From the sequence record NC_052657.1: a DNA stretch of 64,000 bases. One strand, 5' to 3'. The first letter of the stretch is position 1. Each line of letters begins with the position of its first letter. This DNA is from Escherichia phage muut. The notes beneath the pieces are model-generated. The model made no database searches. It had not been told where the DNA came from and worked only from the letters and a program-made list of their open reading frames with translations. A program made the position numbers and the translations under genes. Of the stretch, positions 4,308-36,340 are shown one piece after another.

Positions 4308-4315
4308 GGGGAAAT

Positions 4316-4792: not shown

Positions 4793-4793
4793 A

Positions 4794-7568: not shown

Positions 7569-7578
7569 GGGGGTTAAA

Positions 7579-8399: not shown

Positions 8400-8411
8400 G
8401 AGGAGAATAGA

Positions 8412-8846
8412 ATGTCTATTGTGACACAAATGAAAGCAGATCGTATCTTAGCACGTACAACCGATAAGGGTGCTTTTGCTTTGTTAACTAATATTATTGG
8501 TGAGTTTGACCTTGCTCGTACTCAAAAGGCAAATCTAAATAAATCAGAAGATGATATTATGATTAACATTGTTAAGATTGGTATTGCACACGCTAAAGAG
8601 GAACTAGACTCGCTTAAGAAAGTTAATGCCTCCATTAGCAAATGTGAGCGAGCTATGCGTGATATCACCATTCTGGAAAAATATTTGCCAGAAATGCTAT
8701 CTGAAGATGATCTTCGAGCTATTGCTGAAGAATTTGCCTTGACAGGCAAGAAAATGCCAGATATGATGAAACACCTTAAAGCAGAGTATCCGAATCAATA
8801 TGATGGAAAACTTGCTTCTACCATTGCAAAAGAAATTTTAAACTAA
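8412..8846 (+). CDS. GatB/YqeY domain protein
   Basis: 144 aa; ILEKYLPEMLSEDDLRAIAEEFALTGKKMPDMMKHLKAEYPNQYDGKLASTIAKEIL matches the YqeY pattern. Confidence 0.6.
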   Translation: MSIVTQMKADRILARTTDKGAFALLTNIIGEFDLARTQKANLNKSEDDIMINIVKIGIAHAKEELDSLKKVNASISKCERAMRDITILEKYLPEMLSEDDLRAIAEEFALTGKKMPDMMKHLKAEYPNQYDGKLASTIAKEILN

Positions 8847-8863
8847 TTTAGAAGGAGAACATA

Positions 8864-9814: not shown

Positions 9815-9862
9815 GATCAAGGACAATCTTACGAAAAAGATTTAAAATAAAGATCCACCCTA

Positions 9863-9890
9863 AAGCCAGCTTAATGCTGGCTTTTATTTT
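9863..9890 (+). terminator. rho-independent terminator
   Basis: AAGCCAGC-TTAAT-GCTGGCTT then TTATTTT. Confidence 0.6.
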
Positions 9891-9903
9891 CCACGGAGGA
9901 TTA

Positions 9904-11703: not shown

Positions 11704-12170
11704 ATTACGCCGGATATGAACCTGTTGACATGCTCAACGGTGACGGTGTAAGATGCTCTTTGTGGGTGAGCGGTTGTAGCCACGGTTGCCGTGGCTGCTT
11801 TAACCAGAAAGCCTGGTCGTATAACTACGGACAAGAGTTCACTACTGAAACATTAGATCTTATCTTGAAAGATTTATCTCGACCTTTCATTAAAGGATTA
11901 ACAGTTTTAGGTGGTGAACCTCTTGACAAAGAGAACATTGACACTGTAGCGTATGTTCTTGAGAAGGTAAGAGATTGTTTTGGAAACAAAAAAGATATTG
12001 TCTTATACACAGGATATCTTTTTGAAGAAATTCCAGAGAAAATTAAAAAACTGGTTGACATAGTGATAGATGGTAAGTATGATATGAATCAACCAACAAC
12101 GAAACGTTATAGAGGCTCAGATAATCAACGAATGTGGGTTAAGAAAGACAACATTTGGGAATCTGACTAA
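11700..12170 (+). CDS. nrdG: anaerobic RNR activating protein (radical SAM)
   Basis: CSHGCRGC 4Fe-4S motif, 156 aa, start overlaps nrdD stop. Confidence 0.85.
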   Translation: MNYAGYEPVDMLNGDGVRCSLWVSGCSHGCRGCFNQKAWSYNYGQEFTTETLDLILKDLSRPFIKGLTVLGGEPLDKENIDTVAYVLEKVRDCFGNKKDIVLYTGYLFEEIPEKIKKLVDIVIDGKYDMNQPTTKRYRGSDNQRMWVKKDNIWESD

Positions 12171-12190
12171 ATTAAATAGAGGAGAAAACT

Positions 12191-13351
12191 ATGTTTACAG
12201 TATTCGGCAATCAAATCTTCCTGCGTCAGAAATCTGGTACAGATATTGAAGAAATTCCAGCAGGAACTTTTGGTGTAGGTGTTACTCAAAGTGGTGAGTT
12301 CTTCCTGTATCCTAAAAACGATATGGAAGTGCCTTCAGTAACATACGGTGATACTGATGATAAATCAGAACGTATTATCAAAACGTTCCTTAGCCGCAAA
12401 GGTAAAAACACAGGTGTTCTCCTTGAGGGTACGAAAGGTAGCGGTAAAACTTTGCAAGCTAAAATGCTGTCTTCTGCTCTTCGTGAAATGGGTATTCCTA
12501 CTATTTCTATCGGCAGTGCTTTTAATGGCGAAGGTTTTATCAATTTTATGTCTAAAATCACACAACCTGTGATGATTATGATCGATGAATTTGATAAACT
12601 GTATGCTGAAAAAGATGCACAAGATGGTTTGCTTACCCTGTTGGATGGTGTTGGTGGCTACGACAAACTGTTTGTATTGACTAAAAATGATGGTTATGTA
12701 TCAGAATTTTTGCGTAATCGTCCTAGCCGTATTTTCTACAGTTTTAGCTATAAGAAACTACCTAAAGCTACTATGGATGATTATCTGGCTAAAAATCTGG
12801 AGAACAAAGCCTTCTTACCAGATTTTGAAACGCTTTATAATCTCTCCGTGGATTTGAACTTTGATATTGTTCAGTCATTAGTAGAAGAACTTAACCGTTA
12901 CCCTAATGACAAATTCTCTGATGCACTTGCATTGATGGGTATCAGTATTACTGAACACCGCTATGCTGCAAAAGAGGTTAAACTTCTGAAAGTTAACGGT
13001 GTAGATCGTACAGGAGATGTTTCGTCAGATACCGATATTGACGGTATGACAGCACAAGGTTTGTTTAGCGGTAATCGTTATGTTGTAGCTGTAGACCATA
13101 AACTAGGTGAAGAGCATCTTCCTGAAATGGAAGGGATTGTTACCGTAGAAGATAAAGATGAAGAAGGTGACTACTACTGGGGTGTAGACCGTATCTTGCT
13201 AACGTATGATGAAAAACACATTCGTACAATGGGTGGTGACGGTTATCACTTTATGTTCACCGATGATAAAGGTAACAACATTGAAGTTGTTATTAAAAAC
13301 AAAGAACGTAAAAACTACACAGAGTATGTGTTTGGTGGTCGTTCTTACTAA
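12191..13351 (+). CDS. AAA+ family ATPase
   Basis: Walker A GTKGSGKT, Walker B IMIDEFD; 386 aa. Confidence 0.6.
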   Translation: MFTVFGNQIFLRQKSGTDIEEIPAGTFGVGVTQSGEFFLYPKNDMEVPSVTYGDTDDKSERIIKTFLSRKGKNTGVLLEGTKGSGKTLQAKMLSSALREMGIPTISIGSAFNGEGFINFMSKITQPVMIMIDEFDKLYAEKDAQDGLLTLLDGVGGYDKLFVLTKNDGYVSEFLRNRPSRIFYSFSYKKLPKATMDDYLAKNLENKAFLPDFETLYNLSVDLNFDIVQSLVEELNRYPNDKFSDALALMGISITEHRYAAKEVKLLKVNGVDRTGDVSSDTDIDGMTAQGLFSGNRYVVAVDHKLGEEHLPEMEGIVTVEDKDEEGDYYWGVDRILLTYDEKHIRTMGGDGYHFMFTDDKGNNIEVVIKNKERKNYTEYVFGGRSY

Positions 13352-13358
13352 GTGATAA

Positions 13359-13384
13359 AAGGAGGCGAAAGCCTCCTTTATTTA
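13359..13384 (+). terminator. rho-independent terminator (GAAA tetraloop)
   Basis: GGAGGC-GAAA-GCCTCC then TTTATTT. Confidence 0.6.
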
Positions 13385-13385
13385 T

Positions 13386-13589
13386 ATGGAGGGTATTATG
13401 GATCATTATTTTGTTTTTAAAGATAAAGTTGATACCGCAGGTGGTCACGTTGCTAAAAATGATCGTGACATTAAAGAAGTATTAGGAGATCTGATTAACA
13501 TTTTAGAACAAAAAGAGTTGCTTTTAGATAAGGATATTGCTAGACTTCTGGGTGTGGGGATAAGTGACATACAAAGATTACCATTCTAA
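13386..13589 (+). CDS. small hypothetical protein
   Basis: 67 aa ORF; alternative ATG at 13398. Confidence 0.4.
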   Translation: MEGIMDHYFVFKDKVDTAGGHVAKNDRDIKEVLGDLINILEQKELLLDKDIARLLGVGISDIQRLPF

Positions 13590-13600
13590 AGGGGAAGAAA

Positions 13601-13756
13601 ATGCTTACAGATGATGAATATAAAGCTATCCAGGAAAAACTAACGGAGCTTGAAATTCTTGCTGTCAATATTAAAGATCAATCACATGCTGGAAAGTTAC
13701 TACAGCAAGAGATCAATAAAATTAAGCAGATGATATTCTTTTGGACGGAGGATTAA
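13601..13756 (+). CDS. small coiled-coil protein (51 aa, not in ORF track)
   Basis: ATG 13601 after GGGGAAG RBS; MLTDDEYKAIQEKLTELEILAVNIKDQSHAGKLLQQEINKIKQMIFFWTED. Confidence 0.4.
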   Translation: MLTDDEYKAIQEKLTELEILAVNIKDQSHAGKLLQQEINKIKQMIFFWTED

Positions 13757-13758
13757 AA

Positions 13759-14415
13759 ATGACTGTTAAGCATATTTCTTTTGATGTATGGAATACTCTT
13801 ATTACTGCTAATCCTTTGTATGCAGAAGAACGCAACAAGGTTATTGCCGAGTATGCCTCTTGTTCTGAGGTAGAAGCAGCTACCGTATATAAAGAGGTAA
13901 AAACTCTCCTGGATTTAAAAGCAGAAAAAGGTATTTGTGGAACATCTAGGCATGCTTGGGAAACACTTTCTGCTCATTTGAACATTGATCTTGATAAGGT
14001 GGATGGGTTAAAAAGAGACTGTTTAGCAATGTTTATAAAACATCCTCCAACATTAAACCCTGAACTTTGCAAGAAGTTGGAAGAGCTAAGTTCAACCTAT
14101 TCTTTGAGTATTAAAAGCAATACTAATTTTGTACCTGGTAGTTTTTTAGCTGTATATTCTGGCTTGACAAAATTACCATTCGACTTTATGCATTTTTCTG
14201 ACGAGTTTTGCTTGTGTAAACCAGATCCTAGGTTTTTTAAACTCTCTTTTGATGAAATGGTAACGTTTGATCTCGCACCAGAGGAGATCTTACACGTTGG
14301 AGATAGTTTGATCTATGATGGAAAAGCTGTTGACATAGGGATGAAGTTCTGTCATATTATTAATCCAGAAGACTTGTTGGCTAAACTTAAAAAAGAGGAA
14401 CTTATTAATGCGTAA
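13759..14415 (+). CDS. HAD-like hydrolase (variant motif I)
   Basis: ISFDVWNTLI (motif I with W in place of the second Asp), HVGDSLIYDGKA (motif IV); ATG 13759 with GGAGGA RBS; 3' end overlaps next gene. Confidence 0.45.
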   Translation: MTVKHISFDVWNTLITANPLYAEERNKVIAEYASCSEVEAATVYKEVKTLLDLKAEKGICGTSRHAWETLSAHLNIDLDKVDGLKRDCLAMFIKHPPTLNPELCKKLEELSSTYSLSIKSNTNFVPGSFLAVYSGLTKLPFDFMHFSDEFCLCKPDPRFFKLSFDEMVTFDLAPEEILHVGDSLIYDGKAVDIGMKFCHIINPEDLLAKLKKEELINA

Positions 14416-15265
14416 TCAAATTCAACATTTTGCTAATACTTTTACTAACCTGAAGGAAGCAAAATTTAACATTGCAGATTATTCCAAGCTAAAGTTTGGT
14501 AGTAACCAGGCAGCAAAAAGAATGGGGCGCATTCTGGCTGAAAGTTTCTTTTCCAAGTATGAAGAACGACTGGTAAATGAAAGTTTTGTTGTTATTCCAT
14601 CTCCATATAACTATGTGAAAAATGCAGCTACAGTGTTATCTGAACATTTTGTAGATCACCTCAACTACCTAATCTCTATCAAAGGAGGTAAAGCAGTGGA
14701 GTGGGATATCGTTCATCGTAAAGTGAGCTATATCAATGATTATGGATTTCTTAGCAAAGAAGATCGTAAGGCTTTGATCGATGGTGACACTTTCTCTATC
14801 AATCGTGATTTCTGGGGTAATAAAACTCTGATTTTCATTGATGATGTTAATATTACAGGAACGCACGAAGAAAAACTTATTGAAATTTTAGACAAAGAAG
14901 GTGTTGAAAACGATACGTTTTTCCTGTACTTTGCAAAGTATGAAGGTACAGAAGCCAATACCGAAGCTGCACTTAACTTCAACTATATCAATAACCTGGC
15001 AGCTTTTATTAAAATGATTAAACAAGAAACTGATGCTAAATGTTTGGTTCGTCCTATTAAGTATCTAATGAGTCAAAGCGAAGTTGATTTTAAAATTGCA
15101 CTTTCACAGCTTCCTTTGTATTATGTAGAACAACTGTTCTTTGGTTGCCTTGCAGAAGGCTACAATAACATTGAAAAATATAAAGAGAACTTTGATTTCC
15201 TACGTCAATTTTTTGAAAGCAACATTATCAACAAATCTAATGTTAAAGGGGATTATTATGTCTAA
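14408..15265 (+). CDS. phosphoribosyltransferase-like protein
   Basis: LIFIDDVNITGTH matches the type I PRTase PRPP-binding loop; overlaps both neighbours. Confidence 0.5.
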   Translation: MRNQIQHFANTFTNLKEAKFNIADYSKLKFGSNQAAKRMGRILAESFFSKYEERLVNESFVVIPSPYNYVKNAATVLSEHFVDHLNYLISIKGGKAVEWDIVHRKVSYINDYGFLSKEDRKALIDGDTFSINRDFWGNKTLIFIDDVNITGTHEEKLIEILDKEGVENDTFFLYFAKYEGTEANTEAALNFNYINNLAAFIKMIKQETDAKCLVRPIKYLMSQSEVDFKIALSQLPLYYVEQLFFGCLAEGYNNIEKYKENFDFLRQFFESNIINKSNVKGDYYV

Positions 15266-15974
15266 TAAAGTAATGACTTTCGGAGATCCTATCACCAATA
15301 TTACAGAAAAAGATTTTGGGCGTGTAGCAACAGATAAAGATGGTGTCTTAAGAATTCGTGTACAAGGTATTACAGCACAGGATGAATATGCTGTGTATGT
15401 TTCAGGTCTTAACTATATTGATGATCGCATTACACAAAACTTTGCACTGATCGGTGGTGTAGAGAAAATGTATTGGGAAGATGAAATTGTAACAAGTTAT
15501 CCGGCAGGTATCATTGAGGTATACGGTGATCTTTTAGCAGCAGCCGAGAGAGGCGATATAGACGCTATAGCACACTGCTGTAACTGTTTTTGCACTATGG
15601 GTAGTGGTATTGCACCAAAAATTAAAAGCAAGTGGCCTGGTGCGTTTAAAGCAGATTGTGCCACTAAACGTGGTGATTATAAAAAATTAGGTACGTTTAC
15701 CAAATATATAGAAAACAATTTGACAATTTATAATTTATATGGACAATATGGTTATAGTCGTCGTGAGGAAGGTAAGCGTGACCTGAATTATGAAGCTATC
15801 TACAATGCGTTAGATAGTATGGGAGACGATGTTGTATCTTCAGGCGGTAAAATTGTAGGTTTACCAATGCTTGGTTGTGGTTTGGCTGGAGGTTCTTGGA
15901 GTATTGTAAAACTTATGATCGAAGAAACTCTAGTAAACAAAGGTTTAAATGTAATTGTTTACAAACTGAAATAA
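15258..15974 (+). CDS. macro domain protein with an N-terminal extension of about 90 aa
   Basis: DAIAHCCNCFCTMGSGIAPKI and VGLPMLGCGLAGGS align with macro-domain blocks (DVIVNAAN..GGGGVDGAIH; FPAISTGVYG); ATG 15258 overlaps upstream stop. Confidence 0.5.
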   Translation: MSNKVMTFGDPITNITEKDFGRVATDKDGVLRIRVQGITAQDEYAVYVSGLNYIDDRITQNFALIGGVEKMYWEDEIVTSYPAGIIEVYGDLLAAAERGDIDAIAHCCNCFCTMGSGIAPKIKSKWPGAFKADCATKRGDYKKLGTFTKYIENNLTIYNLYGQYGYSRREEGKRDLNYEAIYNALDSMGDDVVSSGGKIVGLPMLGCGLAGGSWSIVKLMIEETLVNKGLNVIVYKLK

Positions 15975-15983
15975 GGAGAAAGT

Positions 15984-16190
15984 ATGGCAGGTGTTTTAGC
16001 AGTATTAGGTTGTTTTATTGTTGTGTTTTTGATTGTGTTAATCCCTAGTTGGCTACTGCTTTTAGCATACAACTATATGATTGACATTATCGGCTTAGAC
16101 TGGCATCATGTTCCTGTAACGTTTTGGAGTGTAGTCTGTGTGACGTTCATTCTTGCGGTACTTCGTGGTATCTTTCAATCTAACAAATAA
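15984..16190 (+). CDS. small membrane protein
   Basis: 68 aa, two hydrophobic helices. Confidence 0.5.
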   Translation: MAGVLAVLGCFIVVFLIVLIPSWLLLLAYNYMIDIIGLDWHHVPVTFWSVVCVTFILAVLRGIFQSNK

Positions 16191-16204
16191 GAGAGGATTT
16201 TTAT

Positions 16205-16453
16205 ATGCGTAAAGTAAATGTTGAAGTGCTTGAAAAATTTAGAAACACTCGTGATTGTACTATCGGCAAGGTTTACGAGGCTATTCTCCTTGAAGATGGA
16301 GATCAAGTTCCTGCCCCGTATCACGCCTTTAATGGTCAAATCAGCAAAGTGGAAGGTGGTCTTGCTATTTGCTTTATTGATGACGTAGGTGATGCTGTAG
16401 CTTTCCCTGTCATTAACAAAGAAGATAAACTTAAAATTACAGAACTGAACTAG
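16205..16453 (+). CDS. hypothetical protein
   Basis: 82 aa ORF. Confidence 0.45.
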   Translation: MRKVNVEVLEKFRNTRDCTIGKVYEAILLEDGDQVPAPYHAFNGQISKVEGGLAICFIDDVGDAVAFPVINKEDKLKITELN

Positions 16454-16483
16454 TTGACTTTCTTTAAAAACAGTTTATAGTAT
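16454..16483 (+). promoter_or_regulatory. promoter candidate (TTGACTTT -35, TAGTAT -10) upstream of terC-like gene
   Basis: TTGACT 16454-16459, 18 nt spacer, TAGTAT 16478-16483. Confidence 0.35.
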
Positions 16484-16493
16484 AAGACATAGA

Positions 16494-16512
16494 GCGGAGG
16501 ATTGTCCTCCGC
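16494..16512 (+). promoter_or_regulatory. 5' leader hairpin that includes an anti-SD-like CCUCC
   Basis: GCGGAGGA-TTG-TCCTCCGC, no U tract, 18 nt before ATG 16531. Confidence 0.3.
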
Positions 16513-16530
16513 ATTAAAGAGGAGAAAAGA

Positions 16531-17508
16531 ATGCAACTGGGTTTCCCAATTATTGATGTGGTTGTTTTAGTGGGTATTTTAGTCTTGTCGATTTGTATTG
16601 ACTTCTTTGGACACAGAGAAAACAAAGAAATTTCATTTAAATCTGCAATTGGCTGGTCAATTTTCTGGATTGGGGTATCATTAGCCTACTATGGTTTTGT
16701 ATACTTCCAACACGGTGCTGATTTTGCGAGCTTGTTCTTGAGTGGGTATGTGTTGGAGAAATCTCTTTCTGTAGATAACTTAGTAGTATTTGTAGCAGTA
16801 TTCGCAAGTTTTGGTATTAAAAGCACACACTTGCAGCACAAGATTCTACTTTGGGGTATTGCAGGTGCGATTGTCTTCCGAGGTGTGTTTGTAGCAGTAG
16901 GCACTTACTTGTTGAGTTTGGGCTGGTATGTTAATATCTTCTTCGGTGCTGTCATCCTTTTCTGTGCGGCTAAAATGGTATTCGCTGGAGATAATGATGC
17001 AGAAGTTGATTACTCTAAACACTGGGCTACTCGCATTGTTCGTAAGCTGTTCCCTGTATCTGATCAGATGGATGGTGAGAAGTTCTTCACAATCAAAAAT
17101 GGTGTTCGTGTAGCAACTCCGGCTCTGGTTTGTGTGTTTGTAATGGAAATGGTTGACGTAATCTTTGCAGTAGACTCTGTTCCAGCAGTAATTGCAGTGA
17201 CACAAGAACCTCTGCTTGTATTTTCTTCAATGCTGTGTGCAATTTTAGGTCTACGTGCTCTGTTCTTTGTACTTAGTGTTGCACTGAAATATTTGGTTCA
17301 TCTGGAGAAAGCAGTTATCGTAGTCCTGGTGTTTGTGGGTGTAAAACTGATGTATCATCCGTTTGCAGAAACTCTGCACGCAAAAGTGAGTTTCCTACCA
17401 GCACACATTGATCCGACGATCAGTATGTATATTGTGTTAGGTACTCTTGGGTTGGGTGTTATTGCAAGTTTAATCTTCCCTGAAAAAGAAGACCAGACTG
17501 TTGCTTAA
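16531..17508 (+). CDS. terC: TerC family integral membrane protein
   Basis: Multi-pass membrane protein with both TerC signature repeats: EKSLSVDNLVVFV and EMVDVIFAVDSVPAVIAVT. Confidence 0.8.
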   Translation: MQLGFPIIDVVVLVGILVLSICIDFFGHRENKEISFKSAIGWSIFWIGVSLAYYGFVYFQHGADFASLFLSGYVLEKSLSVDNLVVFVAVFASFGIKSTHLQHKILLWGIAGAIVFRGVFVAVGTYLLSLGWYVNIFFGAVILFCAAKMVFAGDNDAEVDYSKHWATRIVRKLFPVSDQMDGEKFFTIKNGVRVATPALVCVFVMEMVDVIFAVDSVPAVIAVTQEPLLVFSSMLCAILGLRALFFVLSVALKYLVHLEKAVIVVLVFVGVKLMYHPFAETLHAKVSFLPAHIDPTISMYIVLGTLGLGVIASLIFPEKEDQTVA

Positions 17509-17513
17509 TTCAT

Positions 17514-17536
17514 TAAGCCCCTTCGGGGGCTTTGTT
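17514..17536 (+). terminator. rho-independent terminator (UUCG tetraloop)
   Basis: AAGCCCC-TTCG-GGGGCTT then TGTT. Confidence 0.65.
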
Positions 17537-17547
17537 GAGGTGATCTG

Positions 17548-17754
17548 ATGGTGGTTTTACGTGTTCTTTGGATTCTGTTTGAAAATATTTGTTTTGCTCT
17601 AGGGTTGTTTTGTTTGATTTTTATCTTGACAACATATATTGATAACCATACAATTACTATCAACAGGAACGGAGAACAGATGTATTGTTTCTCTAGGGAT
17701 TTTAAAAATTGTGTTGAGACTTTAAATGAGAGGGTTACAAATGAAAAACATTAA
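17548..17754 (+). CDS. small membrane protein
   Basis: 68 aa, hydrophobic N-terminus. Confidence 0.35.
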   Translation: MVVLRVLWILFENICFALGLFCLIFILTTYIDNHTITINRNGEQMYCFSRDFKNCVETLNERVTNEKH

Positions 17755-18331
17755 ATCTTTTATTGTTGCAGTTGTTTTAGGTAGTGTATTGCTGGTAGGT
17801 TGTGATGATTCTGAAAATGTACAAAATCAACGTTACCAGCAAACACCAAATCAGATGGTAGATGAGCAATATGTAAATCAACCTGCACCTCAAGTTGTTC
17901 AAGCAGCACCTGCACAACCTTCAACAGTTGTTGTTCAAGGAGGCGGCAGTGGTTCTTCTGGCGTAGGTGAGTTCGCTACAGGTATGCTTCTTGGTCATAT
18001 GTTGAGTGGTAATAGTGGCGGTGGTGGTTATAGAGATGGCGGTAGCAATACAACAATTATCAATAACAACGCTGCTCCTACAACTAATAGTAAAGCATAT
18101 ACAACACAAAAGCATAGTTTTTATGATAAACAAGGAAATACATATACAACCACTAAACAAAACACAATTAAGCAGCAAAGTGTACAAACGTATTCACGCC
18201 CATCAACAACAAAAGTGAATAGTAATTACTCTGCTCGTAAGTCTTACTCAAGCCCTATTAGCTCTTATAGTAAGTCTTCGAAAAGTTATTCTTCGTCGAA
18301 ACGTAGTTTTAGTAGCTCACGTCGTCGTTAA
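17741..18331 (+). CDS. lipoprotein with glycine-zipper segment and Ser/Tyr-rich tail
   Basis: Signal peptide with lipobox LLVGC; GEFATGMLLGHMLSGNSGGGG; tail SYSSPISSYSKSSKSYSSSKRSFSSSRRR. Confidence 0.6.
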   Translation: MKNIKSFIVAVVLGSVLLVGCDDSENVQNQRYQQTPNQMVDEQYVNQPAPQVVQAAPAQPSTVVVQGGGSGSSGVGEFATGMLLGHMLSGNSGGGGYRDGGSNTTIINNNAAPTTNSKAYTTQKHSFYDKQGNTYTTTKQNTIKQQSVQTYSRPSTTKVNSNYSARKSYSSPISSYSKSSKSYSSSKRSFSSSRRR

Positions 18332-19286: not shown

Positions 19287-20390
19287 ATGTCCAGTCCTTT
19301 TATCAGTGCCGTAAAAAGCAAACCGTCTGAAATGAGTGTATTCACGGCAACAACAGAAAAAAGTAAGTCTTTGTTTGCTCCAAGTGCTATGGATGCAAGC
19401 CCTGTATATGCCCCTGCTGTTGCACGACCTGTACAAATGCTGCCTCCAATGTCTCGTGAAGAGATTGAACAAGTTGGTGCTGATGCAGGACTTACTCTTC
19501 GTAACCTTAATGCTGAAGTGCTTAAACACCAGCGTTCATCTCAGGGGGATGAAATGAGTGAACGTTTAACTGCACTTATTAAGCAAGCAAAGCAACTTGA
19601 TCCTAACTCTATTAAACAATCTAAAGGCTTAGGTAAACTAGTTAAGAAAGTATTAGGTATGAAAGAAGATTTGTTTGGTGAATTTGACACCATCAATAAT
19701 CGTATTGAAGGTTTGGTAAAGACACTACAAACAGACTTGAAAAAAGAAGAAGATTCTTTACGATATCTGCAACGTTTAGAAGAGGCTATTGCAAAATATG
19801 CTCTTAGCTTAAACAGGGATATAGAGCTTCTAACAGCTACTTATGAAAAAGAAGAAGTTCGCCTTAATACACTACCTGAAAATGAAGTAGAAGAGCGTCA
19901 ACGTACTCGTGATACTATGGATCTGCTTGAAATTCGTATTGCAGACCTGAAAGCCTTGCGTTTACTGTGTGTTCAGATGGGGCCACGTGTACAAAGTATG
20001 CAGAAAGTATCTGCAAGTTTGATGCGATCAGCCCGTAATATTGTGAATAATGTTATCCCTGCTTACTCTGCAAACTTTTCTATGTATATTGAAAGTCTAC
20101 GCCAGAAGAAAGCAGCCGATACACAGAACAATGTGCTGAATGAATTTAATGCTGCTATTGCAATGGGTAGTGATCTGGCTGCACAAAACCAAATTGAAGC
20201 TACACAACTTGCTAATCGTCAAGTATTGGATATTGAAACATTACGTCGCGATCAAGAAAACTTAGTTAAAATGTTGGAAGAAACTAACCGAATCAACACT
20301 GAAGCCCGTGCTGCGCGTATTGATTACATTCAAGAAGTGCAATCTCTTGAAGATGGTATGATTCAAACTGTTAAACGTGGTCTACTTTAA
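19287..20390 (+). CDS. TelA/KlaA-like toxic anion resistance family protein
   Basis: 367 aa coiled-coil protein; C-terminal LDIETLRRDQENLVKMLEETNRINTEARAARIDYIQEVQ resembles the TelA block. Confidence 0.5.
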   Translation: MSSPFISAVKSKPSEMSVFTATTEKSKSLFAPSAMDASPVYAPAVARPVQMLPPMSREEIEQVGADAGLTLRNLNAEVLKHQRSSQGDEMSERLTALIKQAKQLDPNSIKQSKGLGKLVKKVLGMKEDLFGEFDTINNRIEGLVKTLQTDLKKEEDSLRYLQRLEEAIAKYALSLNRDIELLTATYEKEEVRLNTLPENEVEERQRTRDTMDLLEIRIADLKALRLLCVQMGPRVQSMQKVSASLMRSARNIVNNVIPAYSANFSMYIESLRQKKAADTQNNVLNEFNAAIAMGSDLAAQNQIEATQLANRQVLDIETLRRDQENLVKMLEETNRINTEARAARIDYIQEVQSLEDGMIQTVKRGLL

Positions 20391-21636: not shown

Positions 21637-22431
21637 ATGTCCAATAAAATCAGTCTTAAAAAACGTCAAGAAACTCTTACTGTATCCCTGCGTAAGAAAA
21701 AGATTAACGATGTTGTTCTTCGTGTAGGTAGCGCCTTAGATATTTCGGGTAGTATGTGTGAGCTGTATCGTGATGGCACTGTTAGCGATTTTGTAGGTAA
21801 ACTGCTGCCGTTTGGTATGAAGTTTGATGATAATGCACAGATTGACATGTGGGCTTTCAATAGTTCTTCTTTTGAACTGCCTCCTGCAACGGCTGATGTG
21901 TATGATGATTATGTCGGCTCTTGCATGTCTAATGTTTGCATCAACGGTGGTACTGCTTATGCTCCAGTAATGCAAGAGATCTATGATACATACTTCGGTA
22001 GTGTACCTATGAAAAATATTACACGCGAAGTCGTTGAGTATGAAGAAGTTCCGGCTAAAGGTTTCCTTGCTAAACTAACTGGTAAAAAAGAACTTGTAGA
22101 AGTAACACGTACTGTTGTAGAACAGGTTGTAGATACTGATGCACAAGTTGATCGTACTCCTGCAATGATTTTCTTCCAAACTGACGGGGAGAACATGGAT
22201 ACTTCAGCAGTACGTAGCTTACTGAACAAACACCGCAATACGCCTGTTTACTGGTTTATGGTTGGTGTAGGTAATGCAAACTTTAAATTCCTGAAAGACT
22301 TGGCAAAAGAATACGATAATGTTGATTTTATCGGTATTGCAGATTTGTCCTTGTCTGACGAAGAACTTTACGATAAACTGCTATCTGAAGAGTTTGGTGA
22401 GTGGGTTAAAAAATTTGGAGCAAAAGCGTAA
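21637..22431 (+). CDS. vWA domain protein (TerY-like) with TerD-like N-terminal tag
   Basis: MIDAS DISGSM, GGTAYAP, FFQTDGE; N-terminus ISLKK..LTVSLRK parallels the TerD start. Confidence 0.55.
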   Translation: MSNKISLKKRQETLTVSLRKKKINDVVLRVGSALDISGSMCELYRDGTVSDFVGKLLPFGMKFDDNAQIDMWAFNSSSFELPPATADVYDDYVGSCMSNVCINGGTAYAPVMQEIYDTYFGSVPMKNITREVVEYEEVPAKGFLAKLTGKKELVEVTRTVVEQVVDTDAQVDRTPAMIFFQTDGENMDTSAVRSLLNKHRNTPVYWFMVGVGNANFKFLKDLAKEYDNVDFIGIADLSLSDEELYDKLLSEEFGEWVKKFGAKA

Positions 22432-22503: not shown

Positions 22504-23100
22504 ATGACTCAGAAAATTTCCCTGAAAAAAGGTTCTAGCGAAAAAGTTTCTCTGAAAAAGATTGCACCAGCACTGAAACGCATTCGTCTGGAATTCTCTT
22601 GGAAATCTAACGAAAAACTGGATCTGGATGTTAGTGCTCTGATTTGCCGACACAATGCATCTGGTCTGCCGGAACTGTTGTCTCCTCGTCACCTGGTGTG
22701 CTACGCGCAGAAATTTGATCCTGAACGTTCTACTTTTGCAGGTGAAGATGTTCGTGATGGTGTAGGACAGATGGAGCAGATTGATGTTACACTGGATAAT
22801 ATCTCTGCTGAAGCACAGGAAATTGCATTCGTAATTACTATTGATGACGAAACGGGTAAGAAACGCCTTGGTCACGCTACCGAAGGTTTCCTTAAAATCT
22901 TCGATGATGAACGTAATGTTGAACTGCTGGACTTTGACTTCTTGGCTCCAGAACTTGCAGGTAACACCATTTGCCACGTTGCCTCCCTGGTGCGAGAAGA
23001 TAGCGAATGGAAACTGAAAGCATATGGTGTGGGTAAAGCTGGGCTTGACATTTACGATGTAGTTAAAGCGTTTGGCGCTGGCGACGATTGGTTCGAGTAA
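22504..23100 (+). CDS. terD: TerD family protein
   Basis: ISLKKGSSEKVSLKK, LDLDVSALI, EIAFVITID, EWKLKAYGVGKAGL align with TerD blocks (VSLSKGGNVSLSK, FDLDASAFL, KIIFVVTIH, EWKFRAVGQGYAGGL). Confidence 0.8.
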   Translation: MTQKISLKKGSSEKVSLKKIAPALKRIRLEFSWKSNEKLDLDVSALICRHNASGLPELLSPRHLVCYAQKFDPERSTFAGEDVRDGVGQMEQIDVTLDNISAEAQEIAFVITIDDETGKKRLGHATEGFLKIFDDERNVELLDFDFLAPELAGNTICHVASLVREDSEWKLKAYGVGKAGLDIYDVVKAFGAGDDWFE

Positions 23101-23847: not shown

Positions 23848-24357
23848 TTGTCAATAAAAACCTTTGTCGCAATTGCGTTACTATCCTTAACTGCTTTTAC
23901 ATTTACACCTGTTGTGGCGCAAGCCGAAGCTGCAAACGTAAAAACTGCTAAAGTAGTTCACAAGTGTACAAAGCGTGATAGTAAAGAAAATCTATTAGCT
24001 TGTGCAATCTATGCAGAAAGTCGTAATCAAGGAAAGCGCGGTATGTCTGCTGTTGGTAATGTAGTATTGAATAGGGCTAGAGATTCATATTTCCCTGATA
24101 CTATAAAAGAAGTTTTGTTTCAAAAAGGACAATTCTCTTACACAAAGACATTCAACGTTATGGAACGTGATAAGTGGAAGGAAGCTAAGGCTATAGCAGA
24201 ACGTCTACTTTATCTCGATACGCATTTTCCAGAATTACGAATTGCATTAGATATTACAAAAGGAGCATTATACTTTAAAAAATCTACAATAAGAGCACAC
24301 TGGGAAAAAGATATGGTTCTAGTGTACCGCTACAAAGAACATCAATTCTATCGCTAA
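23848..24357 (+). CDS. secreted cell wall hydrolase (SleB/Hydrolase_2 family), possible endolysin
   Basis: TTG start 7 nt after GGAGG; signal peptide ending AQA; CAIYAESRNQG...AVGNVVLNRA...FPDTIKEVLFQKGQFSYT. Confidence 0.6.
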   Translation: MSIKTFVAIALLSLTAFTFTPVVAQAEAANVKTAKVVHKCTKRDSKENLLACAIYAESRNQGKRGMSAVGNVVLNRARDSYFPDTIKEVLFQKGQFSYTKTFNVMERDKWKEAKAIAERLLYLDTHFPELRIALDITKGALYFKKSTIRAHWEKDMVLVYRYKEHQFYR

Positions 24358-24876: not shown

Positions 24877-25048
24877 TACTGGTGAAGTTGTAAAATCTTG
24901 GGATGATCTTAGTGGTATCCCTACAGATAAACTGATTAAACTGCGTGATGTTTGTCGTGATCATCTTAATGAAACATATAAAGAGTATATGGAAGCACGA
25001 GATCACAGTTTAGCTATCCAAATGGAACTCGCAAAACGTAATCAATAG
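24854..25048 (+). CDS. hypothetical protein
   Basis: 64 aa ORF. Confidence 0.4.
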   Translation: MKTIGINDTGEVVKSWDDLSGIPTDKLIKLRDVCRDHLNETYKEYMEARDHSLAIQMELAKRNQ

Positions 25049-25105
25049 GTAAAACCATTTGGACTTTTTAGTCTAAAAATGCTAAAGTAATAATACGGAG
25101 GGAGT

Positions 25106-25669
25106 ATGATATTTCACATAACTCCCTATCTTTCTGGAGATATTGGAAAAGGTATCAATGACACAATAAGTGTCTTACCAGAAGATAGTTGGATTTGCCT
25201 AAGAGACATTGATACAATGTTTCTTCTTCCAGAACAACCTGCTTGGCTGGAATCAATTGTCCGTTCAAATCCTGATTTTGATGTTCTTGGTGCATCTTGT
25301 AACAGATTGGGATCAACATATCAATTATTTAATAATGAAAGAAGTGAAGATCCGAATATATTACACCACATTGAGATTGCAAAAAGAGCACATCTAGAAT
25401 GGGGAAACTCAATAGAGGAAGTACCTACAGATGCTATCTTAGCAGGATTCTTTCTTCTCTTTCGTAAGAGTCTGTGGAATGAAATTCCTTTTGAGGAAAG
25501 ATCAATACAGTTTGATATAATTTTCTCTAAAGCATTGCACGCTAACAATAAAAGGCTAGGTTTACTACGTGGGTTATATTTATTTCACACATACCGTTTA
25601 GGTAATGATGATCCTAGAAAAGCTGTTTCACACCTTTTACATTGTCAAGACATGAATAAAATTATTTAA
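25106..25669 (+). CDS. glycosyltransferase (GT-A-like, DxD)
   Basis: RDIDTMF DxD motif, GFFLLFRKSLW. Confidence 0.5.
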   Translation: MIFHITPYLSGDIGKGINDTISVLPEDSWICLRDIDTMFLLPEQPAWLESIVRSNPDFDVLGASCNRLGSTYQLFNNERSEDPNILHHIEIAKRAHLEWGNSIEEVPTDAILAGFFLLFRKSLWNEIPFEERSIQFDIIFSKALHANNKRLGLLRGLYLFHTYRLGNDDPRKAVSHLLHCQDMNKII

Positions 25670-25678
25670 GGAGTTATT

Positions 25679-26365
25679 TTGGAAAATACAAAAATTGGTG
25701 TTGGTGTTATTACTGTAGGTAAGCGTCCTCTTAAAGATTATCTTGTGACTGATCCTAGTGCTACTTTTGTTGTACAGTATGATCGGGAACGAAAAGGTGT
25801 TGCATATGCTCGTAATGAACTGATGAAAAAGTTTTATGATGAAGGATATGATTACTGGTTTATTTTTGATGATGATTGCTATCCTGTTGTTCAAGGTTGG
25901 GAAACATATTTTGTAAAACAGGCGAAGGAAAATGGTTGGGATTTCTTTGGTATGCCTGAATACTTTAAAGATAAAGTAAAAGGTATTGAAGGGGAAGTGG
26001 TTATTTGGGAGCTAGGAATGTGCCAGTTTGGTATGTATTCCCGTGCAGTTATTGAGAAAGCTGGCTATTTCCGCTCATACACCCACGGCTATGGGTATGA
26101 AGATGCAGAGTGGATTCATCGCGTCCCACTGGCAGGTTTGAACCGAGGTATTCAAGGCGTACCATGTCCTATTCGAATTATGGCGTTTATCCATCCTGAT
26201 GATGTATTTGGAGACAATCCTTTACCTTTTGCGAATCTGTCAAAAGAAGAGAAAGAACAGGGGATTGGTGTAAACTGGGAACAATATAAACAATCCCTGG
26301 AGGATCTTCGCAATGGTAAAACTTTTATCTCTTATGAGGAGGCTCAAAAATATGGTAAATCCTAA
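25679..26365 (+). CDS. glycosyltransferase family 2-like
   Basis: FIFDDDCYP DxD motif, YGYEDAEW. Confidence 0.55.
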   Translation: MENTKIGVGVITVGKRPLKDYLVTDPSATFVVQYDRERKGVAYARNELMKKFYDEGYDYWFIFDDDCYPVVQGWETYFVKQAKENGWDFFGMPEYFKDKVKGIEGEVVIWELGMCQFGMYSRAVIEKAGYFRSYTHGYGYEDAEWIHRVPLAGLNRGIQGVPCPIRIMAFIHPDDVFGDNPLPFANLSKEEKEQGIGVNWEQYKQSLEDLRNGKTFISYEEAQKYGKS

Positions 26366-27326
26366 TACTCCTGTACTTAAGTGTGATAATAAGTTAGGCA
26401 GTGGTTGTGATTACCATCGTATTGTAATGCCATTTGCTGGAAATACGTTTAAACCTAAGAAAGACGTTTTAGTTTTTAATAGAGTGTATTCTCGTGGATC
26501 AGACGAAGTTAAACGCCTGAAGGCACAAGGTGTTAAGATTATTGTTGATTTAGATGATTTTTATTCGCTTAATCCTGAACATTATATGGCTGGCGTATTT
26601 ACTAATCACTCAAAGACTATTGTAGAGATGATTAAGTTAGCAGATGTGGTTACTGTAACAACAGAATACCTAGCTTACAAAATTCGTCATTTAAATCGTA
26701 ATGTTGTCGTTATTAGAAACGCACTACCTTACGACGAAGGTCAATTTACTTTGACAAAAGACCGTTATTCTGACACGCCTATTATTTGGGCGGGAGGAGC
26801 AAGCCATGAACCTGATTTATCTCTTGTAGCTAATACATTTGATGATACGCTATTGACAATTGCAGGGTATGAAGTGTATCCTTCTGCACCTGTTGGAAAT
26901 AATAGTCAGTATCTAACTACTGCGGAGTGGGTTAAAGTAAAACGTAAAATTCCAAATGCACAGTATAAACCAGCTATTAAAAATTTAGGTGAGTATATGT
27001 CTGTGTATGACGGTCACAGTATTGCAATTGCTCCTCTGGTAGATAATGACTTCAACAACTGTAAAAGCAATTTGAAGATTTTGGAAGCAGGTGCAAAGGG
27101 TCTTCCTATTATCTGTTCTCCTGTGCTGCCGTACTTCAATCCGGTAGATGCAAAGGCTGTTATCTATGCAGACTCTAAAGCATCTTGGCATTATGAAGTT
27201 GTCAAGCTAATGAGGAACCCTAGATACACAGAAGATCGTGGTATGATGCTTGCAGAACACGTTCGTCTTAATTATAATCTTGCAGATGCTAATGAACTGC
27301 GTCGTCAAGTTATTGAAAGTCTTTAA
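26352..27326 (+). CDS. glycosyltransferase (GT-B-like), paralog 1
   Basis: KSNLKILEAGAKGLPIICSP; shares blocks with next gene; ATG 26352. Confidence 0.5.
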   Translation: MVNPNTPVLKCDNKLGSGCDYHRIVMPFAGNTFKPKKDVLVFNRVYSRGSDEVKRLKAQGVKIIVDLDDFYSLNPEHYMAGVFTNHSKTIVEMIKLADVVTVTTEYLAYKIRHLNRNVVVIRNALPYDEGQFTLTKDRYSDTPIIWAGGASHEPDLSLVANTFDDTLLTIAGYEVYPSAPVGNNSQYLTTAEWVKVKRKIPNAQYKPAIKNLGEYMSVYDGHSIAIAPLVDNDFNNCKSNLKILEAGAKGLPIICSPVLPYFNPVDAKAVIYADSKASWHYEVVKLMRNPRYTEDRGMMLAEHVRLNYNLADANELRRQVIESL

Positions 27327-27337
27327 TAAGGAGCTAT

Positions 27338-28282
27338 ATGCCTAATATTATTCTTGACACACGCGGAAATGAAAAGTATAGTGTATGTGATTTTCATAGA
27401 ATCATTTTGCCATATAAACGCAAACTGACCATTAATCCTAAGCATAATATTTTTGTGTTCAATGGAGTACCAACACGTGGAAAGCCAGGTTTCCTGGCTC
27501 TTAAACAACTTGGGTTTAAATTGGTAATGGATCTGGATGATTCTTTAATTATTCCTGAAGGGCATATGCTTGAAGGATTATTTGAAAATCAAATCCGAGA
27601 TGACCTAAAATGGTTCCTTGAAAGAAGTGATCTTGTAACTACAACAACTCCGGCATTAAAGGTTGAATTAAGCCAATACAATGATAATGTACATATTGTG
27701 CCTAACGGACTACCTTTTGATGAAGGACAGTTTGTTCTTACTAAAGATCGTTATTCTAAAAGTCCACTGGTTTGGGCGGGAAGTGAAACACATAAACATG
27801 ATTTAGCAATTCTTCCTGATTTTGGTAAAGATTTAACTTTATGTGGATTTCGTAGAGATCACGAAGAGTTGAGTAGTGCTCAATGGTTGCAAATTAAAGA
27901 AGATATTCAACCAGATTGTGTTTATGAAGGTATTCGTCCTTATGAGTGTTATATGGAAGCATACGATGGTCATCAAATCTCCATAGCTCCGTTAGTAAAT
28001 AATCATTTTAATAATGCCAAAAGTAATTTAAAAATTCTTGAAGCTGGTGCTAAAGGTTTGCCACTCGTTTGTTCACCACGAGAGAACTACTATACTGAAG
28101 AATTTAAAGATCTAATCTTCTTTGCTGATTCAGTTAAAGAGTGGAAAGATATTGTAGAATACTTAATCGAATCTCCTGATGTTTGTATTGAGAAAGGATT
28201 AGCTCTTGCTAAGTATGTAAGAGATAACTACAATATTGATGATTTAAATGAAACCCGCAGACTGCTTATCGAGGATTTATAA
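27338..28282 (+). CDS. glycosyltransferase (GT-B-like), paralog 2
   Basis: CDFHRIILPY, LTKDRYSKSPLVWAGSETHKHDL, KSNLKILEAGAKGLPLVCSP paralogous to the upstream gene. Confidence 0.5.
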   Translation: MPNIILDTRGNEKYSVCDFHRIILPYKRKLTINPKHNIFVFNGVPTRGKPGFLALKQLGFKLVMDLDDSLIIPEGHMLEGLFENQIRDDLKWFLERSDLVTTTTPALKVELSQYNDNVHIVPNGLPFDEGQFVLTKDRYSKSPLVWAGSETHKHDLAILPDFGKDLTLCGFRRDHEELSSAQWLQIKEDIQPDCVYEGIRPYECYMEAYDGHQISIAPLVNNHFNNAKSNLKILEAGAKGLPLVCSPRENYYTEEFKDLIFFADSVKEWKDIVEYLIESPDVCIEKGLALAKYVRDNYNIDDLNETRRLLIEDL

Positions 28283-28551
28283 TGAACACTTTTGATTTTG
28301 AGTATAAACAAGATAATAAAGAACCTATTATTGTTGAAGTAGATTACTATTATGAAGAACCTAACCCTTTCTCACGAGAAAGTGATTGGGATTATTATGG
28401 TGGTCTTATTGTTGATGGTATTAGATTTTATTCTGGTACAAAAGAACTTTTTGATATAGATATTTCCCCATCGGAAATTGTTTACCAATTTAAGAAACAT
28501 ATGGAAGATTTGGAAATGCAATATATTATGGAGACAAACGAATCATTTTAG
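28282..28551 (+). CDS. hypothetical acidic protein
   Basis: 89 aa ORF, ATGA overlap. Confidence 0.45.
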   Translation: MNTFDFEYKQDNKEPIIVEVDYYYEEPNPFSRESDWDYYGGLIVDGIRFYSGTKELFDIDISPSEIVYQFKKHMEDLEMQYIMETNESF

Positions 28552-28563
28552 TAGGAGAATCCT

Positions 28564-30336
28564 GTGTCTTATGTTGTAAATAAATATGGGTATAACATTG
28601 ATCTAAGTCAAGAAGGACATACTGGGTGTCCTCGTTGTATGAAAGGAGGGCGTGATCGATCACAAAACAATTTGATGGTATATGGCTTAGATGCCGATGA
28701 AGACCATCGAGGCGCACATTGTTTTTCTTGTGGCTTTACTATCCCTGATCAAAAATGGTTAAATGCGCACGGCGAAGAAATTGAAGAGGAGGATATCTTG
28801 GGTAGTGAGTTTAATCCAGAAGTACATGATAAACTAAAAGCCAGCACTGGAACTAATCCAAAAGGTTATCGCGGTATTCGTGAAGATATCTCTAAGCCTT
28901 TCGGTGTACGCTATATGTACGATGAAGCTACTGGCGAAGTAATTTCAACACTATACCCTACAACTAAAGATTACAATATTGCTGGGTATAAACAACGTAT
29001 CGATCCAAAAGATTTCTCACATCCTATCGGTGAAACAGGAAAGGATTGTGATCTTTTTGGGGAGTTTAAATATCGTAACCACAGCGGTACTATTCTAATC
29101 GTTGGTGGTGAACACGATATGCTGGCTGCAACACAGATGCTAAAAGATTATAACAAGGGTGGTAAATATCCTGTTCCTGCTGTAGTATCTGGTACTTGTG
29201 GCGAAACATCTCTGCATAAGCAGCTTCAACATCGTTATAAATTCTTAGATCAATTTAAAAAGATTGTTCTATGTATGGATAATGATGAAGCTGGACGTGC
29301 AGCAGTTGAGAAATGTGTTAAAATCTTACCACGTAATAAAGTTTACGTGATGGAACTAACGGATGTTAAAGATCCTAACCAGGCACTAGTAGAAGGAAAA
29401 ATTGATCATTTTATTGATCGCTTTTTCAAAGCTAAATTGTACACACCTGCTGGTGTTTACGCTTCTAACGTACTGTATGAAGCAGCCTTGGAATGCCTGG
29501 AAGCTAAAATGATCACCCTTCCTCCATTCATGCGTGTTGCTTCTAATATGTTAGGTGGAGGCTTGGTAGAAGAAGAAATTACTGTTATACTTGCAAAAAC
29601 AAGTATCGGTAAGACACTGTTGGTTAACGAGATTACAAAGCACATTATTCTTGCACATCCAGAACATACTCTTGGTATTTTATCTTTGGAGGCAACGTAT
29701 AAGAAGTATTCTCGTAACTTACTGTCTTCATTCTTGCATATCCCTCTTCACCGTAAAACGAAAGAAGAGAAGGAAAAGATTTTAAAAGATAATGAAGAAA
29801 AGATTCGTGATTTTTACGAACGAGAAGATGGAACACCACGTTTCTATGTTTGTGATGATCGTGGAGCTAACGTAGATGTGATTAAAGAGAAGGTTCTGGA
29901 AATGATTATTTATTTCGGAGTAACCATTCTTGTTATCGACCCTTATTCTGATTTGCTTTCTGGTATGGACGTGTCACAACAAGAGGAACTTGCGACGTGG
30001 CTGAAACGCATTATGAAAGAGTATGCAATAACCATTGTTGTAATTTCACACGTTAAAAAGTCTTCTAACAATAGTAATGAACATATTGTAGAAGATGATG
30101 CAATGGGTAGTAGCTTCCTTGCTAAAGGTGCTGGTATCACAATTGCGCTGGAGCGTGATAAACAAGCTGAAGATCCTATGGAACGTAACCGCACATATTG
30201 CTACATTCTAAAGAACCGTGAGTTCTCAGAGACTGGTGCAGCAGGTAGTTTCTTCTATGAGATTAAAACAGCTACACTTCACGATTACGATCAATACACA
30301 AGTAACCCAGAGAACATCTCTGCTGGTTCTTATTAA
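28564..30336 (+). CDS. bifunctional DNA primase / DnaB-like helicase (T7 gp4-like)
   Basis: GTG start after AGGAG; zinc finger CPRC...CFSC; helicase Walker A AKTSIGKT; 590 aa. Confidence 0.75.
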   Translation: MSYVVNKYGYNIDLSQEGHTGCPRCMKGGRDRSQNNLMVYGLDADEDHRGAHCFSCGFTIPDQKWLNAHGEEIEEEDILGSEFNPEVHDKLKASTGTNPKGYRGIREDISKPFGVRYMYDEATGEVISTLYPTTKDYNIAGYKQRIDPKDFSHPIGETGKDCDLFGEFKYRNHSGTILIVGGEHDMLAATQMLKDYNKGGKYPVPAVVSGTCGETSLHKQLQHRYKFLDQFKKIVLCMDNDEAGRAAVEKCVKILPRNKVYVMELTDVKDPNQALVEGKIDHFIDRFFKAKLYTPAGVYASNVLYEAALECLEAKMITLPPFMRVASNMLGGGLVEEEITVILAKTSIGKTLLVNEITKHIILAHPEHTLGILSLEATYKKYSRNLLSSFLHIPLHRKTKEEKEKILKDNEEKIRDFYEREDGTPRFYVCDDRGANVDVIKEKVLEMIIYFGVTILVIDPYSDLLSGMDVSQQEELATWLKRIMKEYAITIVVISHVKKSSNNSNEHIVEDDAMGSSFLAKGAGITIALERDKQAEDPMERNRTYCYILKNREFSETGAAGSFFYEIKTATLHDYDQYTSNPENISAGSY

Positions 30337-35608: not shown

Positions 35609-36340
35609 ATGAGCGAATTTGTAAACAACACCGCATTAAACTACCTGCAAACCCTCGAAAGCAATAGTGTAGATTTGATTCTTACTGACCCACCATATGC
35701 TATTTCTCGTGACACAAATTTTCAGTCTGGAGAGCCTACTGGAAAAGATACGGATAGATTCCGTGTATCTTACAACTTCGGTGATTGGGATGTTGTAGAT
35801 ATTCCTTACTTTAAAGAAGTATTCAAAGAAGCCTACAGGGTGCTTAGAAAAGGTGGTACTTGCATAGTTTGGTATGATATCTGGAAGATCCAGGAACTAC
35901 GTGAAATCCTTGAACCGCTTGGTTTTCGTATGTTCCGTACCATCGAATGGATTAAAACAAACCCTGTACCCATCAACAGTGGTGTTAACTACCTTAGTAA
36001 CGCTAAAGAGATGGCTATTGTTTGTGTTAAAGGTTCGAAACCAACCTTCAATGCTTCCTACCATAAGGGTGTGTTTGAGTATCCTATCTATCAAGGAGCA
36101 GATCGTTTTCATCCAACACAAAAACACTTGACTTTGTTTTGTGACCTTATTAATATACACACCAACGAAGGAGATGTAGTCTTAGACTTCTTCTCTGGAA
36201 GTGCAACAACACAAGTTGCGGCACTTTTAACAGGTAGAGAATACTTAGGCTGTGAAGCCGATGTAAATATTTTTAAGCAAGCGGAGGAACGACTAAATGA
36301 GTACACTGAACAGCAAAATCACCCTGAAAGCACTGATTAA
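35609..36340 (+). CDS. DNA methyltransferase (N6-adenine or N4-cytosine, beta class)
   Basis: DPPY motif (ILTDPPYAI) ahead of AdoMet-binding VLDFFSGSATT. Confidence 0.75.
   Translation: MSEFVNNTALNYLQTLESNSVDLILTDPPYAISRDTNFQSGEPTGKDTDRFRVSYNFGDWDVVDIPYFKEVFKEAYRVLRKGGTCIVWYDIWKIQELREILEPLGFRMFRTIEWIKTNPVPINSGVNYLSNAKEMAIVCVKGSKPTFNASYHKGVFEYPIYQGADRFHPTQKHLTLFCDLINIHTNEGDVVLDFFSGSATTQVAALLTGREYLGCEADVNIFKQAEERLNEYTEQQNHPESTD

Follow-up and report, generated by a model that had tools for sequence, protein, structure and literature searches.

To our knowledge, virion glycosylation has been shown experimentally only in actinobacteriophages and, among eukaryotic viruses, in giant viruses. Chloroviruses and other giant viruses employ virus-encoded cytoplasmic glycosyltransferases (GTs; e.g., PBCV-1 A064R) to build glycans on capsid proteins, and the capsid glycans of chloroviruses contain rhamnose. 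The cassette of mycobacteriophage Che8 (gp108–gp110, with variants in TChen and Che9c) comprises several clustered, soluble, phage-encoded GTs, for which capsid glycosylation has been reported, with gp110 being essential (PMC12363180). Other phage GTs act on DNA, as in the T-even phages, RB69, and DLP3; the DNA arabinosyltransferases of RB69 and DLP3 are enzymes of the GT-B fold resembling family GT4 and occur as tandem paralogues (PMC13326640). Here we describe a locus of four tandem GT genes, GT1 to GT4 (positions 25106–28282, + strand), in a 64,000-nucleotide stretch of Escherichia phage muut (NC_052657.1; hereafter the window). The names GT1 to GT4 denote these genes and their products unless a family is specified. 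Like the Che8-type cassette, the locus encodes several soluble GTs in a cluster.

Indirect evidence favors proteins of the phage particle over phage DNA as the acceptor. We propose that GT1 and GT2 (GT-A fold) and GT3 and GT4 (GT-B fold) would constitute a soluble cytoplasmic glycan-assembly module, whose members probably act in sequence to produce a short hetero-oligosaccharide. The donors would be host uridine diphosphate (UDP)-sugars and deoxythymidine diphosphate (dTDP)-L-rhamnose, the latter formed from host dTDP-glucose by phage RmlB, RmlC, and RmlD. At least one virion protein would receive the glycan in the cytoplasm while particles assemble, as in Che8, and the particle would thereby gain a glycan coat. 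In this model, the simpler glycan of relatives having GT1 and one GT-B would become longer or branched through the duplication of GT3/GT4 and the gain of GT2. We assign virion protein as the acceptor a probability of about 0.35.

The Four Enzymes

The region from 25000 to 28600 of the window is identical (100%) to Escherichia phage vB_EcoM_ZYD and 98–99.7% identical to more than 50 genomes of Justusliebigvirus (phi92-like phages, Stephanstirmvirinae), including phi92 and the BASEL phages EmilieFrey (Bas61) and PaulScherrer. A further close relative, Eryne, displays 99.1% identity across this region. RefSeq labels phi92 gp163–gp166 as four glycosyltransferases, and the BASEL authors labeled the same proteins as two "putative glycosyltransferases" and, for GT3 and GT4, two "putative disaccharide synthases"; the existence and general nature of the genes are therefore already public. 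What is added here is the donor pathway, the contexts of distant relatives, and the weighing of acceptors. All four open reading frames (ORFs) were found on the + strand at the positions given in a preliminary description of this DNA, and its assignment of two GT-A enzymes with a DxD motif followed by two paralogous GT-B enzymes was upheld by profile, structure-prediction, and fold-search tests.

GT1 (25106–25669, 187 aa) and GT2 (25679–26365, 228 aa, TTG start) each consist of a single Rossmann-like α/β/α domain matching solved GT-A enzymes. GT1 is a minimal GT-A whose DxD motif (D34-I-D36) is invariant at both aspartates across 33 sequences, and its fold resembles those of RmlT, TarP, and SpsA. 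GT2 is of the GT7/GT2-like type and displays an R...DDD...ED signature (R16...D64-D65-D66...E141-D142) that includes a YG-ED motif; F63-D64-D65-D66 and G139/E141 are invariant across 17 sequences, and the protein matches phrog_2456 (E = 3.5e-79) and phrog_1579 (E = 7e-11). PDB sequence searches with single proteins returned nothing useful. A profile of the GT2 protein family retrieved β4GalT7 as its best PDB match, weakly (E = 0.016), with the DVD (DxD) and WG-ED motifs of that enzyme lining up with those of GT2 in the profile alignment. One GT2 homologue carries the Pfam domain Glyco_transf_7C, and GT2 is probably an inverting enzyme.

GT3 (26352–27326, 324 aa; phrog_7162, E = 3.7e-149) and GT4 (27338–28282, 314 aa) each contain two Rossmann domains matching solved GT-B enzymes of family GT4 and are paralogues with 41% identity (E = 4e-83). 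A GAGGAGG Shine-Dalgarno sequence and agreement with a cluster of 324-aa homologues bear out the start of GT3 at 26352 that had been proposed beforehand; public records use an alternative start at 26313, giving 337 aa. GT4 exceeds the gathering threshold of Pfam PF13524 (26.8 versus 25), whereas GT3 stays under every Pfam gathering threshold (14.7 and 18.1 bits, with Pfam GT1 matches below the cut-off). An alignment of 43 family members has 15 invariant residues, all of which both proteins retain, so that neither looks like a degenerate copy.

The best structural match of GT4 is 6kih, and giant-virus CgeB-like GT-B proteins are also among its structural neighbors. Those of the GT-B pair include enzymes acting on lipid-linked or envelope glycans (PglA/WlaC, PimA, TarM, WbnH, WaaG, and WaaB) as well as enzymes with small-molecule substrates (BshA, sucrose-phosphate synthase, tetrahydrobiopterin glucosyltransferase, and SenB). 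CgeB, SpsA, and the Sps dTDP-rhamnose genes also take part in spore-crust glycosylation in Bacillus subtilis, a cellular system with many more enzymes whose likeness to the present one is at the level of family and fold only. Taken as a set, GT1 to GT4 belong to known enzyme superfamilies, in families for which no characterized member was found, and all four are almost certainly active glycosyltransferases. None has a strongly hydrophobic segment, the maximum 19-residue Kyte-Doolittle mean being at most 1.2.

The Sugar Donor

A dTDP-rhamnose pathway was noted in phi92-like and phAPEC8-like phages by Olsen et al., who speculated that it serves the rhamnosylation of hydroxymethylated bases (PMC7552041). 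In Eryne, RmlD (254 bits versus a cut-off of 224), RmlC (260 versus 156), and RmlB (412 versus 365) all exceed the NCBIfam equivalog thresholds; their genes lie ~70 kb from the GTs, outside the region covered by the window. With genuine RmlB, RmlC, and RmlD encoded by these phages elsewhere in the genome, dTDP-L-rhamnose is a probable donor for the enzymes of the cluster. RmlA is represented only by its C-terminal half (profile positions 156–284), fused to RmlB (PQ529420, 115716–117026), and dTDP-glucose must therefore be supplied by the host RmlA. The pathway described as "complete" in the literature thus seems to be without a full RmlA in Justusliebigvirus. The Stephanstirmvirinae records containing RmlC, ~130 in number, are about the same as those containing GT1.

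Distant Relatives and Their Contexts

Within the subfamily, Klebsiella phage KP13-26 possesses RmlC, GT1, and only one GT-B, which is GT3-like and 65% identical to GT3; GT3 is the paralogue that Klebsiella relatives keep as their single copy. Since this divergent phage has just these enzymes, GT1 and a single GT-B appear to form the conserved core of the subfamily, with GT2 and GT4 as likely additions. GT4 occurs in Justusliebigvirus, Phapecoctavirus, and close relatives. A separate observation concerns Justusliebigvirus alia OZ035770.1, in which the only GT-B match (46205–47140) has 65.6% identity to GT3, against two GT-B copies at 98% or more in the other genomes of Justusliebigvirus; the cluster may exist there as a natural variant or have been replaced.

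Beyond the subfamily, the GT-B family has at least 550 matches in viral contigs, compared with seven loci in 185,579 species genomes, a count that came from a narrower search pattern and is not strictly comparable. At least four of the seven cellular loci are prophages, four of them in Pseudomonas, and none of the cellular matches lies in an O-antigen or capsule cluster. Dereplication left 18 independent clusters, in 12 of which a GT2-family GT-A was located no more than three genes away from the GT-B, and the GT-A/GT-B pair is therefore the widely conserved unit. The pair of a GT2-type GT-A and a GT-B recurs across numerous unrelated phages, where the genes for terminase, portal, and capsid frequently follow directly. 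In several unrelated small phages, the pair or one homologue alone either opens the head-morphogenesis operon or is located within it. In a 36-kb phage contig, for instance, GT-A and GT-B are followed directly by terS, terL, portal, MuF, protease, and capsid genes. In Streptomyces phage KimJongPhill, terS, terL, and portal are immediately preceded by genes for UDP-glucose dehydrogenase, a methyltransferase, and a homologue of the GT-B. Four Pseudomonas prophages (two in complete chromosomes and two in draft contigs, at ~6600–15800 of the stretches examined) share the order Big_2 Ig-like protein, GT2-like GT-A, GT-B, metallopeptidase, terS (DUF2280), terL, portal, and MuF, in which the Big_2 protein is a candidate acceptor. 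Cellulophaga phages place a GT1 homologue between portal and capsid genes.

In Burkholderia dolosa (JAIMDN010000082.1, 2968–8440 of the stretch examined), an inverse autotransporter of the intimin/invasin type (domains IAT_beta, Big_1, and Invasin_D3) and a 571-aa protein without a Pfam family are encoded upstream of a GT3/GT4 homologue of 411 aa; the locus may be an adhesin-glycosylation operon. The closest relatives of GT2 outside the subfamily are ~350 mycobacteriophage proteins. Homology of GT2 extends to the N-terminal GT-A domains of TChen gp98 (27% identity, E = 3e-14) and Che9c gp82, both of which are encoded directly upstream of orthologues of Che8 gp110 (52% and 48% identity, respectively). 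Together, these associations lean toward glycosylation of protein, and specifically of virion protein.

Several points weigh against this reading. No Che8 gp110-type initiating enzyme was found by BLAST, and hhalign gave probabilities of 0.2% for GT1 and 0.1% for GT2; nor did GT2 match Che8 gp108 or gp109. Direct homology of the four GTs to gp108, gp109, or gp110 was rejected, none being detectable, and the present system thus falls outside the Che8 cassette family and resembles it in its working at most. It also differs from that cassette in its Gram-negative host and in having a dTDP-rhamnose pathway. In this phage, the cluster resides within the replication module rather than the structural module, and the co-occurrence of RmlC and GT1 is confined to one clade and hence not phylogenetically independent. 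The neighborhood tally, a pooled Pfam scan of 137 neighbors from 13 distant lineages (25 families listed), was mixed: packaging or head genes were seen at several loci, along with further glycosyltransferases (GT2 family, six; PLOD-type, two), hexapeptide acetyltransferases (three), and C5 DNA methylases (two). Genes for DNA-modifying enzymes also occur just upstream of terS, for which reason a position next to terS is suggestive rather than decisive. Direct evidence of a glycosylated virion protein was encountered for no phi92-like phage in the literature examined.

As an observation in its own right, a phage-like metagenome contig of 41 kb from ENA (10001–17873 of the stretch) has a much larger sugar cluster, in which the GT-B homologue is accompanied by another GT-B, an enzyme of the GT2 family, an epimerase/dehydratase, a radical SAM/SPASM enzyme, and an aminotransferase of the DegT type. 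Such a set suggests that some phage-made glycans may be elaborate.

Alternative Acceptors

The preliminary description had left the substrate unclear, a caution that was well placed, as no paper found reports a substrate of these GTs. Glycosylation of the DNA itself has been speculated on in print (PMC7552041; PMC10844046): the enzymes would attach sugars, rhamnose or others, one step at a time to a hydroxylated base, as in the T-even phages, RB69, and DLP3. We consider this rather unlikely. Primase/helicase and DNA polymerase genes follow the cluster directly, a layout that also occurs in one distant relative, and the R...DDD...ED signature of GT2 is that described for TET-associated DNA GT-A enzymes. 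GT2 further matches, weakly, the PHROG of the T6 β-glucosyl-HMC-α-glucosyltransferase and Pfam TAGT (PF20691), the latter over residues 26–79 only and at 22.1 bits, under the cut-off of 27.5. The RB69 and DLP3 arabinosyltransferases share their best structural match with GT4 (6kih) and likewise occur in tandem, and therefore fold and duplication do not separate DNA from other acceptors; at the sequence level, however, phmmer detected no similarity to the T4 and RB69 enzymes (AGT, BGT, and RB69 arabinosyltransferase; E ≥ 0.4 for all pairs). The acidity of GT1, GT2, and GT4 (isoelectric point, pI, 5.1–5.6) was dropped as an argument against DNA binding, given that T4 AGT (pI 6.1) and RB69 AraT2 (pI 6.3) are acidic too. 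Every DNA glycosylation pathway that we know of requires a hydroxylated base, yet a close relative's genome, at the sensitivity of Pfam and NCBIfam, yielded neither a ThyA-type hydroxymethylase nor a 5hoC synthase. A "thymidylate synthase" was rejected in this role, the sole one being a divergent ThyX. Within the window, the earlier statement that no hydroxymethylase is visible held, but its extension to other base-modification enzymes did not, because a Dam-like N6/N4 DNA methyltransferase (PF01555, E = 1.9e-30) is encoded at 35609–36340 (+). A genuine C5-cytosine methyltransferase in Eryne (PF00145, E = 2e-43; 4258–5247 of the stretch examined), beside a Sir2-family gene and ~60 kb from the GTs, speaks for DNA modification, but none of its eight neighbors is a TET/JBP dioxygenase at the same sensitivity. 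ThyA and TET are likewise absent from the 25 neighbor families listed for the distant lineages, and neither a dCTPase nor a dNMP kinase adjoins the GTs, unlike in RB69 and DLP3. Phenotypes point the same way. With regard to restriction-modification systems, Bas60–62 were described as "exceptionally susceptible," and this "despite a putative dTDP glycosylation machinery" (PMC8594841). ARMADA II targets Bas61 and Bas62, and Druantia III does so more weakly, whereas neither system protects against the hypermodified Straboviridae; the authors suggested that both recognize unmodified DNA (PMC13463889). DNA modification that is sparse or non-protective may nevertheless coexist with restriction sensitivity, and the literature searched contained no nucleoside analysis of phi92-like phage DNA. 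Separately, several other genes annotated as "DNA methyltransferase" in the Eryne record encode NADAR or XkdF-protease-like proteins or are without a Pfam match.

Modification of the host envelope, to which we give about the same low standing as DNA, would have the enzymes and RmlBCD make or modify a glycan of the infected cell, either lipid-linked or on its surface (lipopolysaccharide core, O-antigen, enterobacterial common antigen, or NGR), which could mask receptors, block superinfection, or prevent progeny from adsorbing to debris. The envelope-glycan enzymes among the nearest solved structures (for GT1 also RmlT, TarP, and SpsA), the BASEL label of disaccharide synthase, the Rml genes typical of O-antigen loci, and the recognition of surface glycans by phi92-like phages all accord with such a role. 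The GTs, however, are without a strongly hydrophobic segment, the phage is strictly lytic, and neither the surroundings of the cluster in the window nor a close relative's annotated genome showed an initiating phosphoglycosyltransferase, flippase, polymerase, or ligase; in addition, the GT-B family is essentially phage-borne, with its few cellular members outside O-antigen and capsule clusters. Least probable is another soluble acceptor, such as a host protein, RNA, or a small molecule like a nucleoside-type compound produced by the Ter/PRTase/HAD/Macro genes. This Ter-type module is encoded on the same strand (+) 2–11 kb upstream and comprises a HAD hydrolase (13741–14415), a ComF-like phosphoribosyltransferase (PRTase_3, E = 1e-41; 14408–15265), a Macro-domain protein (15141–15974), TelA (19287–20390), a vWA-TerF-like protein (21637–22431), and TerD (22504–23100). 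It resembles the Ter-associated systems for a "nucleoside-like metabolite" that Anantharaman, Iyer, and Aravind reportedly predicted in 2012, and small-molecule enzymes such as BshA and SenB are among the GT-B structural neighbors. The PRTase/HAD module, which the preliminary description called neighboring, does exist, but at 13741–15974 it is ~9 kb upstream of the cluster and separated from it by ~20 ORFs, and Ter, PRTase, and HAD families are not found beside the GT pair in the 13 distant lineages. Four GTs and a dedicated deoxysugar pathway also fit an oligosaccharide bound to a macromolecule better than a metabolite. Virion protein accordingly ranks ahead of DNA and envelope glycan, with other soluble acceptors last and part of the probability left unassigned.

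Neighboring Genes and Database Records

The genes of the cluster are 9–12 nt apart or overlap, a Shine-Dalgarno sequence precedes each, and a scan found no terminator-like site within the cluster, although counts in the promoter and terminator scan were not above those in shuffled sequence. This layout fits a single transcription unit that would run on into an 89-aa ORF and the primase/helicase gene. The 89-aa ORF (28282–28551, +; phrog_4240, E = 8.4e-35) encodes an acidic protein (pI 4.1) and overlaps the stop codon of GT4 by one base. Its homologues lie directly 3′ of the GT-B in all six loci having one, all in close relatives, an ORF in Klebsiella phage KP13-26 has the same position, and the protein is a possible accessory of the GT cluster. 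A role as a universal partner or acceptor was rejected, given its absence from distant lineages. Encoded among early/middle genes at 23848–24357 (+), about 750 bp upstream of GT1, is a cell-wall hydrolase resembling SleB (PF07486, E = 6.5e-20) that bears a signal-like hydrophobic segment at its N terminus.

Three unannotated records named as "Campylobacter phage" A150, B15, and C3 (MG065639, MG065650, and MG065656) display ~97–99% protein identity to Justusliebigvirus phages of E. coli, with B15 instead matching at the level of Phapecoctavirus. A mistaken host assignment is the probable cause, or else contamination of the samples.

Implications

Phages of Justusliebigvirus and Phapecoctavirus infect a very wide range of hosts and form part of therapeutic cocktails. 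A tentative extension of the virion-protein proposal, to which we lend slightly less credence than to the choice of acceptor, is that a rhamnose-containing glycan made by the four-enzyme module coats the capsid, tail, or numerous tail fibers of phi92-like and phAPEC8-like virions and that the GT-A/GT-B pair is a widespread phage "self-glycosylation" cassette. If virions are glycosylated, antibody recognition, stability, and adsorption could be affected. Should DNA be modified instead, these phages would have a hypermodification route that has no known hydroxylase and gives no protection from classical restriction. In either case, the contradiction noted in the literature, of a "glycosylation machinery" in highly restriction-sensitive phages, would be resolved. 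If true, virion glycosylation by this module would be the first such system described in phages of Gram-negative bacteria and would extend the phenomenon beyond actinobacteriophages and giant viruses.

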